Assembly (NCBI GenBank): GCA_964569655.1
Contig: CAZMTN010000001.1
Coordinates: forward strand, 139,395-203,394
Length of the DNA: 64,000 bases
Reading direction: 5' to 3'
From: an uncultured Candidatus Saccharibacteria bacterium
Lineage (GTDB): Bacteria > Patescibacteriota > Minisyncoccia > Phycocordibacterales > Phycocordibacteraceae
In this document: positions 51,002 to 60,581 of the stretch, one piece after another
Position numbering within the stretch: position 1 is the first letter of the stretch
How the letters are laid out: every line of letters begins with the position of its first letter
Translations under genes and position numbers: made by a program
Notes under the pieces: generated by a model
Database searches by the model: none
The model's input: only the letters and a program-made list of their open reading frames with translations
What the model was told of the DNA's origin: nothing

Positions 51002-51074
51002 GGGCCGTTAGCTCAGTTGGTAGAGCATCTCATTTGCAATGAGAGGGTCGCAGGTTCGAATCCTGTACGGTCCA
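51002..51074 (+). tRNA. tRNA-Ala (anticodon TGC)
   Basis: GGGCCGTTAGCTCAGTTGGTAGAGCATCTCATTTGCAATGAGAGGGTCGCAGGTTCGAATCCTGTACGGTCCA folds with the G3-U70-type acceptor, anticodon loop TTTGCAA and T-loop TTCGAAT. Confidence 0.85.
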
Positions 51075-52551
51075 CCCCGGTAGACAGTTCAGTCGAAAAT
51101 ACTGATTCCGTCGCAAAGATAAAGGAAGTTTCAGAAGTTTTAAATTCTTTCCCGTCAAAGACGACGCCAGAAGGAAATTGGAACTTTTGAAGCTTAGTCT
51201 TCGTTTCGTGCCTAGCCTGCAGCCAGACCTTCCCTGGCGCAGAAATATAGTCACGTGCAAGCGTGAGGGCTCCTGCAACGTCTACTCGCCCATGCTTCAA
51301 GGAGACCTGCTTTTCATACAGGGCAAAGGTTTCTTTCTCCATACGAGCAAGCTGGCTCTTAAGAACGTCATCGCTGACTACACCACTGAGGTTCTTGTCG
51401 ATAAGAACGGCCTGACGGTCCTGAAGCCCAGTAAGGCGAACCTCAATTTCTTCTAGGGCTTTCTGCTGGCCTTTAGTAGCTTCAGCAAACTTCTTACGCA
51501 CCAAACTCTCAAGCTTGTTCAGATGTTCCTTGCTGGGTGCAAAGCGGTTCATAAAGTCCGCAAAGTCCTGGTGCACGATCTCGCTACGCATATCGCTTTT
51601 CTTGACTCCTACGAAGCGATAGTAGGGATACTTACCTTTAGCGAAACTACCGGTAAGCTTCTTTCCTTCAGAGTTTTCAATGAAACGACGCAAAGGGAAG
51701 TCCGGATTATCACGCTTATAAACTGAACTCTTCTTACCCTTCTTGAGAAGTACGCACTGTACCTGATTAAACAACTCCACAGAGACGATCGGTTCAAAGC
51801 TGCCCTTATTTGTCTCACCAAATTTCTCGATAACCCCCATATATACCTTGTTCGTCAGCATCTTGTAGAAGTACGATCGTGCCGGGGACTTCCCATTTTT
51901 AAGACACAGTCCGCGATCGCTCATCATCTTCCAAACGCCGTCAATTGGGTGCAGTGAGGTAGCTACAGTCTCAAAAGACTGAAGAACTAGGGCACTCATA
52001 TCTCCGAGCTCAAGGTTCGGCTTCCCACCTACTACGCCATTCCTAAAGCCAACAGGTGCAGGCCAGACATAACGACCTTCCCGCACTGCATCCTTCATAC
52101 CGCCTCCACAGCGTTCACTACGCATGTCGTTATCAAACTGCGCTACGTTAGCGAGAGTGTTCTCAATAAACTTACCTGCAGCTGTATCGTCAAATTGCTC
52201 CGTTGCAGAAAGAAGTTCAATCTTATACCGCTTAAGCAATGCCCGGATTGTTGCGTGATCTTCTGTACTACGTGCAAGGCGATCAACCTTGTACACAAGC
52301 ACAGCACTGATATTGTTTTTCCTGATCGTGCAGAACTTGAGCATCTCTTGCAATTGAGTCCGGTTGGCGGTCTTTGCGCTCTCACCGGCTTCTACGAATA
52401 CGTGAATCACATCAAAGCCCTTTCGTACCGCAAACTCACGACAAATGCGCTCTTGAGAAACCAGACTATTTCCCTCATCAGCCTGGGCACTGGTTGAGAC
52501 ACGGACGTAAACTACGGCACGCGGCTTACTACTCCCATGAACATTGTTCAT
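51013..52551 (-). CDS. Large serine recombinase (resolvase-type catalytic domain, recombinase domain and Zn-ribbon/coiled-coil region)
   Basis: N-terminal AVVYVRVSTSAQ (catalytic Ser), VLVYKVDRLARS, recombinase-domain and C-terminal features; 512 aa. The last ~20 codons are read from the antisense of tRNA-Ala. Confidence 0.8.
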   Translation of the reverse strand: MNNVHGSSKPRAVVYVRVSTSAQADEGNSLVSQERICREFAVRKGFDVIHVFVEAGESAKTANRTQLQEMLKFCTIRKNNISAVLVYKVDRLARSTEDHATIRALLKRYKIELLSATEQFDDTAAGKFIENTLANVAQFDNDMRSERCGGGMKDAVREGRYVWPAPVGFRNGVVGGKPNLELGDMSALVLQSFETVATSLHPIDGVWKMMSDRGLCLKNGKSPARSYFYKMLTNKVYMGVIEKFGETNKGSFEPIVSVELFNQVQCVLLKKGKKSSVYKRDNPDFPLRRFIENSEGKKLTGSFAKGKYPYYRFVGVKKSDMRSEIVHQDFADFMNRFAPSKEHLNKLESLVRKKFAEATKGQQKALEEIEVRLTGLQDRQAVLIDKNLSGVVSDDVLKSQLARMEKETFALYEKQVSLKHGRVDVAGALTLARDYISAPGKVWLQARHETKTKLQKFQFPSGVVFDGKEFKTSETSFIFATESVFSTELSTGVDRTGFEPATLSLQMRCSTN

Positions 52552-53211
52552 AAGTATTTCCTTTATTCTTGTACATCCTAACTAGTTGTCCCGCGTAGCG
52601 GGCTCCTGGGGCTTATTTAGCTTCCCTCAAGTATGCCTCCACAAGGATTTCGGCGAGATATGTCAGCGCGGCATCTGCAGGGCGCTCCAAATTATTACTG
52701 CTCACGAGAGTTCGTGTGTCTGATCCAACCTTCGTATTAAGCGTAGCGGACCCTTCTTTCTGTCAGGTTCCTATCCGTAACGGTAGTAGGAAAACCAAAC
52801 AACGGTACGCTGCGGCCAAAGCAAATATGGAATACGGCGGCGAGAGGTGAGACACCTTAGCTGGTAAGCAGGGGGAATAAAACGCCACCCTGGTTACCTG
52901 CCGGTGCTTATTACAGCTGACAATAGCATAAAAAGTTGTGAAATTCAATCCGATTATGTGGAAGCATTTTGTGTCGACCTTGGGAAGGACTATACTGAGA
53001 TTGTTCTACAACTGAATAAAAGGCCCGCGAGGGTCAGGACCTAACCCGCCAGCTTCGGCTATCGGTATGGTCTAAAAAAGTCCTGCAAAGACACAATGAA
53101 CCCGTCATGGGGGAGTCTTTGCAGGCCTAGAGGGAAACTTCTAGCCGGCCCGTCCGGGACCCGTGGCGGGTTCATTGTGCGCCCGTCCGGATTACTCGTC
53201 ATGAGAGTCCT
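52552..53211. ncRNA. 660-bp non-coding, highly structured region (candidate large ncRNA or recombination/regulatory region); unclassified
   Basis: No ORF over 60 aa in a gene-dense genome. Hairpin CTGGTAAGCAGGG...CCCTGGTTACC at ~52880..52920. Interleaved inverted repeats at 53080..53195: GTCCTGCAAAGAC/GTCTTTGCAGGCC and CACAATGAACCCG/CGGGTTCATTGTG, a pseudoknot-type topology; direct repeats GCCCGTCCGG occur twice. Confidence 0.25.
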
Positions 53212-53505
53212 ATGACTAAGGCACTCCGTATTTCGGTTATCGTACTCGCTATTGTTCTTGCTGCGTTCGTTGCTCTCGTTCTTGCGTACATGGTTACGCC
53301 ACCGTTCTTTATTTCATTCGGGCAGCACTACATTGGTGCACCAGATATATTCTCCGTATCTGATTTCTATCGTTGTGACCCTAACGGTGCAGACGACTGC
53401 GTACTCACAAGAGAATCTCTCTTTGCGGCGGTTGCGAACGACCCGCACATCGCAAACTGGTGGCCAGTTAACGGATCATTCATCCTGCCGGAGGAATATG
53501 ACTAA
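53212..53505 (+). CDS. Hypothetical membrane-anchored protein (97 aa)
   Basis: TM ISVIVLAIVLAAFVALVLAYMV; overlaps the next gene as ATGACTAA (translational coupling). Confidence 0.4.
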   Translation: MTKALRISVIVLAIVLAAFVALVLAYMVTPPFFISFGQHYIGAPDIFSVSDFYRCDPNGADDCVLTRESLFAAVANDPHIANWWPVNGSFILPEEYD

Positions 53506-56226: not shown

Positions 56227-56481
56227 TAGTTTCCAACGCTTTTCGCAGGTTCTAATATTTCTGGTGGACAGTTTAGCGAATCTACCCCGTCTCGTAGGAT
56301 TTCTATAGGCTTCTCGACTAGGAACGAGAGGTGGCCCTGGTCGAATATGTGCTCGGTACCGAGGGCTGCAAGGATGGCACGTCTCTTTTCCAGGTCGGGT
56401 ATTAAGGCCAGTGGCCTCCAGCCGATAGTATCAAAATATCTAAAGTTTGGATATTGACTTCTTAGATAGACCATTTAGTAT

Positions 56482-56707: not shown

Positions 56708-57229
56708 ATGGTTGAGAACTTGAAAAATGTTGGCTGGACTATTCTGGGAATAGGTTTTTTCTTGCTTCTCATTTTGATAGCAGCTTTGATGCTTAACGGC
56801 GCAGTTTGGGTTGGTGAGCACGTAATTGGCTGGCTTTTTAGTGCCGCATGGATAGTATTCGCCATCAACCTTTTTATCCTTCTACCTCTCGGGCTGTTTA
56901 GGAAAACTGGCGTGTTTGGCGGAATTGCCATGTACTACTCATCGTTTGTATTCGGCTTAACGCTCTGGTTCCTAGGACTCTTGCTTACTTATTTTGCATG
57001 GGGATTTCTTGGAGTCATCGCTGGTCTTATCCTTGGCGGAGTTGGGGTTGTTCCAGTAGCAATGCTGGCCATGCTGTTCGACGGAGAATTCTTTACACTC
57101 GTTGTTCTTCTAGTCCTGACTGCTCTTACGTTCGGCACTAAATTCCTAGGTGTCGTTTTAGCGATGAGAGCAGAGGAAAAAACGAATCAGCTCCACACAG
57201 AAAGGCTGACAACTGAGACTCAGATATGA
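56708..57229 (+). CDS. Hypothetical polytopic membrane protein (173 aa, ~5 TM)
   Basis: Hydrophobic helices throughout; 4 nt after the XRE stop. Confidence 0.45.
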   Translation: MVENLKNVGWTILGIGFFLLLILIAALMLNGAVWVGEHVIGWLFSAAWIVFAINLFILLPLGLFRKTGVFGGIAMYYSSFVFGLTLWFLGLLLTYFAWGFLGVIAGLILGGVGVVPVAMLAMLFDGEFFTLVVLLVLTALTFGTKFLGVVLAMRAEEKTNQLHTERLTTETQI

Positions 57230-57531
57230 CCTACCTCAAACCACTCCTGATTGTCGCGGGAATCATGCTTCTCCTCGCTATCCCTCCCATGTGGCCGTAT
57301 GTCTACTACCAACTCATGCGTATAGTCGTATGTATTGCGGCGGCGTATGGAGCATACACAGCTTTTCAAACAGAGCGTACTGGTTGGGTATGGGTACTTG
57401 GCGCAGTAGCCATCCTTTTTAACCCAATCGCTCCTATCCATCTCGATAAGGAGACGTGGGTTGTGCCCGACATCATTGGGGCAATCATCATGTTCGTGGC
57501 AGCGGTAAAATTGAAGCATCATGGAAAATAA
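57226..57531 (+). CDS. Hypothetical membrane protein (101 aa, 3 TM)
   Basis: Overlaps the upstream stop by 4 nt. Confidence 0.45.
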   Translation: MTYLKPLLIVAGIMLLLAIPPMWPYVYYQLMRIVVCIAAAYGAYTAFQTERTGWVWVLGAVAILFNPIAPIHLDKETWVVPDIIGAIIMFVAAVKLKHHGK

Positions 57532-59392: not shown

Positions 59393-59839
59393 ATGGACTA
59401 CCTGAAACGAGCAGTCGAGTTAGCAAAAATTTCACTTGAAGCTGGTGAGTTTCCTGCCGGCGCAGTGCTTGTTAGTAAGAGCGGAAAAGTCTATGAGAGC
59501 AAACCATCAGTGCCTTATAACCACGGCGAAACGATGGTCATAGATATGGCTATCGAATCAGAAGGGGAGCCACTCGTCGTTGGGGCAACTATATATGCTT
59601 CCATGCAGCCTTGCCTCATGTGTTCCTCAAAGATGTACTGGGCTGGTATTGAAAATGCCCACTTTGTGATTCCGAAGAAGAATGTTCGAGCGGATTACGC
59701 TTATGAAAATGAGTTGGATACGACGGCAGTGGCATCAAATTTCTTCAAACCAATTACAATGACCCACCATTCTGAACTACTAGATGAGGCGATGAGTGCA
59801 TATGTAGCATGGGTAAATAAGATTGAAGACCATGGATAG
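59393..59839 (+). CDS. CDA-fold nucleoside/nucleotide deaminase (TadA/guanine-deaminase-like)
   Basis: Zn-binding H(G)E ... PCxxC: NHGETMVIDMA and MQPCLMCSSKM; N-terminal AGEFPAGAVLV typical of the family. Confidence 0.65.
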   Translation: MDYLKRAVELAKISLEAGEFPAGAVLVSKSGKVYESKPSVPYNHGETMVIDMAIESEGEPLVVGATIYASMQPCLMCSSKMYWAGIENAHFVIPKKNVRADYAYENELDTTAVASNFFKPITMTHHSELLDEAMSAYVAWVNKIEDHG

Positions 59840-60581
59840 TGTTTCAATCCCTAATTCCAGGGGTCGCAAGATAGCAGCGGTCATTCATTATTCACAGGGA
59901 AATAAAAGGCTCGCTATTCTTTGTCCTGGCTATTTAGATACTAAGGACTACGCTCATCTTGTAGACCTTGCGAACAAATTTGCAGAGCGTGGATACACCA
60001 CTGTACGCTTCGACCCTTCTGGAACCTGGGAAAGTGAAGGTCCGATATCTGAGTATCTAACTTCTCAGTATCTTGATGATATTAAGAGTGTTTTGGAATA
60101 TATGCTTGCTAAGGATTCATATACTCAAGTCCTACTTGGTGGTCACAGTCGAGGTGGTCAGGTTTCGCTACTGTATGCTGCTCGCGACCCACGTATCACG
60201 GAAGTAGTAGGTATCATGCCTTCGCATGGGCCAGTAGAAGGTTCTCGTCGTACTGAATGGGAGGCTACGGGAGTAAAGGAGTCTGATAGAGATATTCCTG
60301 GGAGTGAAGAGCGACGACAGTTTGCTGTTCCATTTCAGCATGTGCTTGATCGCGACCAATTTGATGCACTGGGAGATATGCCGAACATTCACGTGCCAGT
60401 ATATTTATTTGCTGGAGAATTAGATGATTTGGTGCCTCCTGAAGAAGTCCAAGAACTTTTTGATGCTGCTAACGAACCTAAGAAGTATCTTGTGCTCAAG
60501 GGCATAGACCATGACTATCGCTTAAATCCTCTACAAGTGGAGGAGGTGAACAATCGTATTATTCAAACGATTGAACGTTAA
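59823..60581 (+). CDS. Alpha/beta-hydrolase fold protein
   Basis: Nucleophile elbow GGHSRGG, later acid/His region (DDLVPPEE ... IDHDY); overlaps the deaminase stop by ~17 nt. Confidence 0.65.
   Translation: MKTMDSVSIPNSRGRKIAAVIHYSQGNKRLAILCPGYLDTKDYAHLVDLANKFAERGYTTVRFDPSGTWESEGPISEYLTSQYLDDIKSVLEYMLAKDSYTQVLLGGHSRGGQVSLLYAARDPRITEVVGIMPSHGPVEGSRRTEWEATGVKESDRDIPGSEERRQFAVPFQHVLDRDQFDALGDMPNIHVPVYLFAGELDDLVPPEEVQELFDAANEPKKYLVLKGIDHDYRLNPLQVEEVNNRIIQTIER

Follow-up and report, generated by a model that had tools for sequence, protein, structure and literature searches.

The stretch of DNA analysed here (the window) comprises 64,000 nucleotides of an uncultured Candidatus Saccharibacteria bacterium (contig CAZMTN010000001.1, positions 139,395 to 203,394). 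It contains a gap at 52552..53211 whose structured part (approximately 53008..53180, plus strand) is almost certainly a member of the LOOT RNA family (Rfam RF03000). The gap is flanked by a 512-aa open reading frame (ORF) on the minus strand (51013..52551), encoding a large serine recombinase, and by a 97-aa ORF on the plus strand (53212..53505), the first cargo ORF of an island. An earlier inspection of the letters (the sequence-only reading) had described the gap as 660 bp of structured DNA with no plausible ORF. Structure is indeed present on the plus strand, where the fold of the whole gap is better than that of shuffled sequences (z = -3.1; 0/20 shuffles as good); the same comparison on the minus strand gives z = -1.1, i.e., not beyond chance. 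For the right-hand 186 nt (53030-53215), z is -3.7 and 0/200 shuffles are as good. The statement on ORFs does not hold, as a conserved ORF of 30 aa is found on the minus strand at 52613..52705.

The gap contains a LOOT RNA

Scanned against Rfam at curated thresholds, the whole window gives only four tRNAs and a single LOOT RNA. The LOOT core match, at 53038..53161 on the plus strand, covers model positions 1-121 of 121 (cmscan). Its score of 53.3 bits exceeds the gathering score of 46.4, and its E-value is 3.4e-7 when the whole window is searched and 5.2e-9 when the search is confined to the region. R1, a covariance model that we built from one high-scoring copy plus 22 nt of its 3' tail, scores the window copy at 51.9 bits, with the match ending at 53180. 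The other Rfam matches in 52400-53400 (CRISPR repeat, PrrB/RsmZ, and MEG3) are far below their own thresholds and were discarded.

The sequence-only reading had considered a large, ornate RNA of the ROOL or GOLLD type. Neither is matched in the Rfam scan of 52400-53400, even at E <= 10. ROOL and GOLLD occur in mobile or prophage-like DNA, at times with tRNAs nearby (PMC5737381). They are multi-domain RNAs of 500-800 nt, whereas the conserved LOOT unit has about 175 nt (53008..53180), so that of this proposal a structured non-coding RNA survives, and its large size does not. A single RNA spanning all 660 nt was also rejected: when 52552-53037 was compared by blastn and tblastx with all related loci that we fetched, only the segment with the small ORF found matches, and the approximately 450 nt of the gap outside 53008-53180 show no conservation as RNA in this homology search.

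All features by which we recognise LOOT members are found in the window copy, namely a full-model score, a P1 internal loop of the form CCUAA...(G)YAUGG, a long P2, a GAAA-capped P3, and a P4. P1 (53038-53072) has CCUAAC at 53040-53045 and UAUGG at 53066-53070. The outer stem of P2 pairs 53079-53092 with 53115-53128 and encloses an inner hairpin (CCC/GGG), P3 (53127-53144) has its GAAA loop at 53134-53137, and P4 (53145-53157) is a short helix of 4 bp in which cmscan flags non-standard pairs; all four lie on the plus strand. The four helices, the CCUAA/YAUGG internal loop, and the GAAA loop are those of the Rfam model, from which the window copy differs by an extra hairpin, P0, and by its short P4. 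It is a weak-scoring, GC-rich member of the family, with 53.3 bits compared to 72-90 bits in AT-rich relatives.

LOOT was described in Rfam 14 as a 'metagenomic-based RNA' (PMC7779021). Rfam lists the family as 'Gene; sRNA', metagenome-derived, from the Weinberg/Breaker ZWD collection. We found no discussion of its host, context, or function in the accessible literature, which excluded the supplementary description in the original paper.

The CCUAAC/UAUGG loop of P1 in the window is nearly identical to the classical 11-nt GAAA-tetraloop receptor, CCUAAG/UAUGG, of group I and II introns and RNase P; it differs at one receptor position, and P3 provides a GAAA loop. Across the family, the position equivalent to the G·U of the receptor covaries non-canonically (A/C 69 times, C/U 18 times, other combinations 7 times), and P3 terminates in GAAA in all collected copies (GGAAAC was fixed by the retrieval pattern for 82 of the 94). 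Given this resemblance, the P3 loop may dock into the receptor-like loop of P1.

A conserved 3' helix outside the Rfam model

To place the window copy within its family, we collected relatives from several sources. Among 15 loci with related recombinases, the Rfam scan found LOOT at most 4 kb upstream of the recombinase in 7. Searches with R1 yielded full-length LOOT in 12 recombinase loci plus one copy cut by a contig end (L014), in 10 of 14 IMG/VR contigs fetched with a degenerate DNA pattern, and in 72 of 80 metagenome contigs fetched with the same pattern. The resulting 94 full-length copies (12, 10, and 72, respectively) constitute alignment A5. The retrieval pattern, used for 82 of them, fixes CCTAAMCY, GGYATGGY, and GGAAAC and puts no constraint on the P2 stem, the flanks, or the segments B and B' described below. 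In R1, moreover, the P2 apex and the tail were left unpaired, so the alignments are not fitted to the hypothesis that B and B' pair. Wherever a recombinase-locus copy has a named host, the host belongs to the Patescibacteria; no credible match was obtained with R1 in the Bacteroidota loci of recombinase relatives.

The sequence-only reading had reported two interleaved inverted repeats of 12-13 bp in the order A-B-A'-B', a pseudoknot topology if transcribed. Both exist and, as an RNA feature, their interleaving is conserved and covaries across the LOOT family. Repeat A/A' (53079-53092 and 53115-53128; 14 nt, 93% complementary) is the outer stem of P2, which is 97% paired across the family, with changes on both sides at 10 of 11 pairs. 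Repeat B/B' (53092-53111 and 53160-53179) is longer than had been claimed, with 20 nt and 90% complementarity. Both of its mismatches are T opposite G, so that as plus-strand RNA it has 20 contiguous pairs including two G·U. Segment B (53092..53111) makes up the apical part of P2 and can pair either locally, as the Rfam inner hairpin, or with B' (53160..53179), which lies in the 3' tail beyond the Rfam model and ends in the U-rich run UUCAUUGU. At -34.3 kcal/mol, the B:B' duplex of the window is the strongest of all copies.

In A5, standard pairs make up 83.7% of the 18 pairs of B:B', compared to 74.3% when columns are shuffled and 45-58% when the partner is slid. Cells changed on both sides number 190, whereas shuffles give 63.8 +/- 7.4 and none of 500 reaches 190. 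Several columns swap cleanly between pair types (GC 39 / AU 26 / CG 9; AU 57 / GC 21; CG 70 / UA 13). An alignment-independent comparison agrees: the mean duplex energy of a P2 apex with its own tail is -22.9 kcal/mol, versus -13.5 with the tails of other LOOT copies and -9.1 with shuffled tails, and the own tail binds better in 89 of 93 sequences. At one position of B:B', A opposite C is kept as a mismatch in 73 of 93 sequences. The outer part of the helix finds support as well in a change at several positions, since the window U-run UUCAUUGU pairs with CACAAUGAA where the family version is AAAAGAA/CUUUUUG. Pairing of the tail U-run with the A-rich linker between P1 and P2, which ViennaRNA gave for the P2 state, was rejected: the window tail UUCAUUGUG matches CACAAUGAA in B and not the linker. 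We are therefore highly confident that B:B' is a real, family-wide covarying helix of 18-20 nt that the Rfam model does not contain. With the P2 outer stem it forms a pair of interleaved helices (A-B-A'-B') that each covary, which is the arrangement of an H-type pseudoknot. The sequence-only reading had proposed a covariance-model scan (Infernal/Rfam) and a search for compensatory base changes in homologues; the former gave LOOT above its gathering score, and the latter found such changes in both the P2 outer stem and B:B'.

Pairs of U in B with G in B' abound, occurring in 65, 79, and 53 sequences at three alignment columns. Their one-way frequency fits an RNA on this strand rather than a site in duplex DNA. 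Together with the better-than-shuffle fold of the plus strand only, these strand-specific U·G pairs suggest that LOOT is transcribed from the plus strand. The repeats could instead act as DNA, by binding the recombinase or a directionality factor or by extruding a cruciform. The element does adjoin the recombinase gene, a serine recombinase is the commonest neighbour of LOOT in general, and inverted repeats are typical of recombinase sites; the sequence-only reading had accordingly listed an excisionase or directionality-factor binding region. We nevertheless consider a DNA site very unlikely and the listed binding region a poor fit, because complementarity is maintained by changes on both sides and each U·G pair corresponds to an A/C mismatch on the opposite strand. 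In addition, the element fits the covariance model of an RNA family, LOOT is also found beside unrelated genes and beside several recombinases that are only 22-30% identical to that of the window, and the attachment (att) site used by recombinases of this family lies 2 kb away, at the tRNA end.

The 5' motif and the likely transcript start

The Rfam model is incomplete at both ends: it stops at P4, without the 3' tail that pairs with P2, and it lacks a conserved 5' motif. The latter has the family consensus ACAAYTNAATA and reads ACAACTGAATA in the window (53008..53018, plus strand). Of the 94 copies, 67 have it in the 60 nt preceding LOOT, usually 0-10 nt before P1, compared to 9 of 234 control windows. 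Mutual information with all alignment columns revealed no convincing covarying partner for it. In 38 of the 67 family members with the motif, a TANNNT hexamer is located 6-7 nt upstream, and the two elements together probably represent a -10 box and, just downstream, the conserved start of the transcript. The corresponding -10 proposed for the window is TATACT at 52991..52996 on the plus strand, where the spacing to the motif is 11 nt. A strict sigma-70 scan of the region called no promoter, and the proposal draws on the family-wide spacing statistics.

Between the 5' motif and P1, the window has the optional hairpin P0 (GGCCC-GCGA-GGGTC, 53022..53035, plus strand) with a GNRA loop. About a dozen copies, including that of the window, have a hairpin at this position with either GNRA or UNCG loops. 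The P0 stems differ between copies and yet stay complementary, which argues that the region upstream of P1 is transcribed.

Competing folds and a terminator-like end

The inner hairpin of P2 and B:B' draw on the same nucleotides of B. The inner hairpin is conserved in its own right: the P2 apex alone folds at -4.1 kcal/mol versus -1.2 for shuffles, with values of -2 or lower in 89% of sequences, and compensatory variants such as AACUC/GAGUU and GCUCU/AGAGC maintain it. In A5 it is only 66% paired, in a loop where that alignment is poor. The full B:B' helix uses 18-19 of the approximately 21 loop nucleotides and, on geometric grounds, would therefore be incompatible with a closed P2 outer stem of 11-14 bp; were the full helix to form inside a closed P2, three nucleotides would have to span approximately 50 Å. 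The full B:B' helix and the Rfam fold would accordingly be alternative states. By the same geometric reasoning, the P2 outer stem could coexist with an approximately 11-bp, GC-rich core of B:B' as an H-type pseudoknot. Folded under constraint, the two nested states are close in energy throughout the family: the median gap between them is +1.5 kcal/mol, and it stays within 3 kcal/mol in 34 of 85 sequences. The window favours B:B' over the P2 state by 7.6 kcal/mol.

The 8 nt that follow the GC core of B' contain 5-6 U in 80 of 94 sequences, and the partner of this U-rich run is an A-rich segment on the 5' side of the B core. The tail thus has the anatomy of an intrinsic terminator in which the loop is replaced by approximately 55 nt holding P3 and P4. 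In having two conserved pairings of one segment that would exclude each other, one of them a GC-rich helix followed in most members by a U-rich run, and a probably promoter-proximal position upstream of an ORF, LOOT resembles attenuators and riboswitch platforms. It differs from these in that its helix is long-range, with arms approximately 55 nt apart around P3 and P4, and in that the downstream genes are unrelated.

Genomic setting and possible function of LOOT

In 73 of 86 loci (85%), an ORF of 80 aa or more, in the same orientation as LOOT, begins no further than 100 nt past the tail. The same criterion is satisfied at 29% of random positions and in approximately 49% of gene-to-next-gene pairs. 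In most loci the next ORF begins at a median of approximately 33 nt past the tail, and in the window, the 97-aa ORF starts 31 nt beyond the end of the R1 match (53180). The downstream proteins are not one family, and many have hydrophobic N-termini.

On the other side, 51 of 79 loci have a divergently oriented upstream gene. The commonest family of the upstream gene is serine recombinase (13/79); others are methylases, an Abi protein, a reverse transcriptase, and so on. Serine recombinases also form the largest cluster of neighbours within 6 kb (37 of 94 loci, at a median of 503 nt upstream) and are mostly (30/38) in the opposite orientation to LOOT; the second-largest cluster within this distance is a methylase-like family, and after it come families whose N-termini, judged by eye, resembled those of small and large terminase subunits. 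LOOT is carried by mobile islands, mostly of Patescibacteria. tRNAs are not enriched near it, with 13 in 561 kb of LOOT loci.

These observations allow the following scheme. LOOT would be transcribed rightward from its own promoter, with the transcript starting at the ACAAYUNAAUA motif, and would be the first element of the island cargo transcription unit, divergent from the recombinase. It would fold into a compact domain held together by the tetraloop-receptor contact. The P2 hairpin would then either be kept or be invaded by the tail, which would build the terminator-like B:B' helix, and the choice of fold would set how much of the transcription ends in a short RNA and how much reads through into the cargo. 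The short RNA released by termination may be stable and a small RNA in its own right. We hold this attenuator mechanism tentatively and would rate it below an even chance; for the identity, the 3' helix, and the attenuator combined, a compromise estimate leans modestly in favour.

Several points weigh against this scheme. The invariance of the positions fixed by the retrieval pattern is partly by construction, both transcript ends are predicted from sequence, and the mutual exclusion of the two folds comes from geometric reasoning and not from a model. The A/U-rich outer part of B:B' offers few independent compensatory events (one column with AU 44 / CG 14, plus the window variant), and the inner hairpin could be a mere transient folding intermediate. 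Terminator arms that are approximately 55 nt apart and enclose two hairpins are unusual, and a simple terminator scan made no call at the window tail, where the U-run is interrupted (UUCAUUGU). The enrichment of a co-oriented next gene over the operon-like baseline of the genome is only moderate, at 84% versus 66% with crude gene calls, and P = 0.05 for the stricter criterion. Finally, the unrelated downstream genes argue against a classical ligand-sensing riboswitch.

Those same heterogeneous downstream genes would suit the main rival, a free-standing small RNA (sRNA) that acts in trans. B:B' and the U-run would then be a constitutive intrinsic terminator and 3'-protecting pseudoknot, and the next ORF would merely be packed close. 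Rfam types LOOT as an sRNA, promoter-like and terminator-like elements bracket a unit of approximately 150-175 nt, and a compact fold with a tetraloop/receptor pair suggests a folded particle. However, a separate promoter would hardly fit into the approximately 33 nt before the next ORF, which seems to call for some read-through, and a plain terminator has no need of the conserved competing hairpin, although neither point is decisive; co-orientation also exceeds the baseline. We regard a trans-acting sRNA as possible but rather doubtful.

As an alternative to attenuation, LOOT could act in cis as a leader, either through processive antitermination, as the put RNA of phage HK022 and EAR do, or as a 5' stabiliser or insulator for acquired cargo. 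Put and EAR are compact structured leader RNAs. As LOOT would be, they are located just past the promoter in mobile or accessory operons and are indifferent to the downstream gene, and the promoter-proximal position of LOOT at the head of variable mobile-element cargo, whatever that cargo is, fits such a role. Unlike LOOT, they have no terminator-like end, and the U-run at the LOOT tail would be left unexplained; the Rfam scan detected no similarity or homology to the put and EAR families. We therefore think a non-attenuating leader improbable.

Some further features recur around LOOT. Two clusters of genes are found 1-2 kb downstream on the opposite strand, in 12 and 7 loci, respectively (e.g., L134:2830-3555 and L095:4933-6462, both on the minus strand). 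Judged by eye from their N-termini, the members of the 12-locus cluster looked like helix-turn-helix proteins or small terminase subunits, and those of the 7-locus cluster looked like large terminase subunits. Some LOOT carriers may be phages or satellites rather than islands, and ten copies come from IMG/VR contigs. One Patescibacteria island has an S-adenosylmethionine (SAM) riboswitch (RF00162, 61.4 bits; L008:3288-3394, minus strand) beside the recombinase and approximately 540 nt from LOOT.

The remainder of the gap

Within 52552-53007, the only segment with homologues is on the minus strand, just upstream of the recombinase. This is the conserved small ORF (52613..52705), recognised by tblastx and six-frame comparison of 10 related loci; it has a GTG start and encodes the 30-aa peptide VSSNNLERPADAALTYLAEILVEAYLREAK, which ends in ALTYLAEILVEAYL (a C-terminal stretch also given as ...ALTYLAEILVEAYLREAK). 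The motif ALxYLAxILVEAYL is encoded directly before the homologous recombinase in all related loci examined, and variation is mostly at third codon positions (alignment A7), which indicates that the ORF is coding. In relatives, the small ORF has 38-80 aa with the same C-terminal motif; the N-terminal part of the window version has apparently been cut off by an in-frame stop codon. The peptide belongs to no Pfam family and could be a regulator, a directionality factor, or a leader ORF of the recombinase.

Most relatives carry an additional RNA-like element in the recombinase leader. It consists of two interleaved helices that are 94% paired, with changes on both sides at 21 of 26 pairs; GCUACACAA pairs with UUGUGUAGC and CCCAAAGAGGGGCAACG with CGUUGUCCCUCUUUGGG, and G·U pairs occur on the sense strand only. 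With nhmmer, we detected this pseudoknot in 57 loci (L018:3792-3913 on the plus strand and 56 more, e.g., L004, L006, L016, L029, L062, and L075), approximately 80-210 nt upstream of the recombinase ATG and preceded by TGnTATAAT. Neither at the gathering score nor at E <= 1 does Rfam contain a match for it, spurious miRNA hairpins aside. It is a candidate for a new motif. The element is not detectable in the window by nhmmer, and the small ORF there is truncated by a stop; both findings suggest that what remains in the left part of the gap is a recombinase leader in decay.

The sequence-only reading had also pointed to a long imperfect hairpin and a direct repeat. Both exist. The hairpin (52862..52900, plus strand; 11 bp, imperfect) is weak, with z = -2.0 and 8/200 shuffles equally good, and has no homologous sequence in any fetched related locus. 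The direct repeat, GCCCGTCCGG at 53148-53157 and 53181-53190, is not significant on its own, as we estimate a chance expectation of approximately 0.3 for an exact 10-nt repeat in approximately 760 nt. Its second copy is part of a segment at 53181..53207 (GCCCGTCCGG-ATT-ACTCGTCATGAG) that repeats the 5' part of P4 (53148-53157) and resembles part of segment B (ACCCGTCATGGG, 53100-53111). This segment may be a local duplication. It can fold into a small hairpin that would cover the probable ribosome-binding site of the 97-aa ORF, no better than shuffled sequences do (z = -1.1). On the minus strand, a terminator-like hairpin with a T-run (GCAGCGTACCGTTGT TTGGTTTTCC, 52799..52813) is situated between LOOT and the small ORF and recombinase, and might insulate the recombinase against leftward transcription.

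The island, its recombinase, and its integration site

The recombinase has Pfam Resolvase and Recombinase domains and belongs to a PHROG integrase family. Its homologues, 45-68% identical, are abundant in Patescibacteria (the Candidate Phyla Radiation, CPR) and Bacteroidota. A tRNA-Ala(UGC) gene called by both ARAGORN and Rfam (51002..51076, plus strand) marks the left end of the island and its integration site. The last approximately 63 nt of the recombinase gene (approximately 21 codons; 51013..51076) are the reverse complement of the 3' half of this tRNA, the C-terminus ...VDPTGxEPxTxSLQMRCST is conserved across the recombinase family, and a tRNA overlaps the 3' end of the recombinase gene in 15 of 15 related loci (Rfam scan). 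From the overlap and the conserved C-terminus, the att region seems to lie inside the 3' end of the recombinase gene. The proximity of a tRNA, which the sequence-only reading had linked to large prophage RNAs, thus reflects island integration at this locus, and it is not a general property of LOOT loci.

GC content is approximately 0.60-0.61 in the flanks and 0.44-0.53 across approximately 51.0-61.0 kb, with a step to approximately 0.48 at 51.0 kb. The island is therefore an insertion of approximately 10 kb beside uvrA, uvrC, ddl, and the tRNA, its right end being placed by GC content only; the three gene names come from window translations and are supported by Pfam labels on the syntenic locus L081. 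A direct repeat derived from the tRNA was looked for at the right end and not found. Midway through the island, the segment TCGCAGGTTCTAAT (56243..56256) is one base off the T-arm segment TCGCAGGTTCGAAT of tRNA-Ala (51048-51061), which could be chance or the relic of an att site. The 97-aa protein encoded at 53212..53505 has a hydrophobic N-terminus and matches no Pfam or PHROG family. Further cargo includes a DUF6804 protein (57226-57531), a cytidine/dCMP-type deaminase (59393-59839), and an alpha/beta hydrolase (59823-60581); the remainder are mostly membrane proteins without a known family. That the island is a prophage was considered and rejected, as Pfam and PHROGs identify no structural or replication genes. 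The closest relative is the island of L081 (CAYHOH010000002.1, 1..11542), which has a 68% identical recombinase at the same ddl/uvrC/uvrA site. Its cargo differs, with ThsB-like TIR and SduA_C (Shedu) defence domains and an extra ORF of 160 aa with a resolvase domain, and there is no LOOT within 10 kb.

The frequent presence of a divergent serine recombinase next to LOOT, maintained over very divergent recombinases, raises the question of whether LOOT might be an RNA partner or guide of the recombinase, like the IS110 bridge RNAs or the HEARO and omega RNAs. This is extremely unlikely. A recombinase is found within 6 kb in only 39% of the loci (many of which are short) and immediately upstream in 13 of 79. 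Among the related recombinase loci with LOOT (n = 10, ARAGORN), 8 abut tRNA-Ala(UGC), one abuts a tRNA-Arg, and for one no tRNA was called. The 8 share their target with the window, yet the LOOT helices vary freely by compensatory change, so the variable parts of LOOT do not encode the target. Moreover, L081 uses the same site without LOOT within 10 kb, and the Bacteroidota relatives of the recombinase have no LOOT either.

Implications for the LOOT family

For the annotation of this locus, the outcome is a gap with a known small RNA and a conserved small ORF, and without a new giant RNA. LOOT is an orphan RNA family catalogued from metagenomes, to which the window and 93 relatives add a setting, a likely start, a tertiary motif, and an extra helix; together these make what was an 'unknown sRNA' accessible to specific experiments. 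New at the family level are the genomic setting of LOOT, its probable start at the 5' end, and the conserved 3' helix in competition with the annotated fold, which speak for extending the Rfam model on the 5' as well as the 3' side. A broader and more conjectural possibility, which we regard as less likely than not, is that LOOT is a bistable promoter-proximal switch of Patescibacteria (CPR) islands and phage-like elements, in which the 3' tail, on invading P2, would build a long-range terminator of pseudoknot type and so control transcription from the island promoter into any cargo. LOOT would then be an expression gate that is independent of the cargo, unlike ligand-specific riboswitches. 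If true, this would be the first functional handle on the LOOT family.

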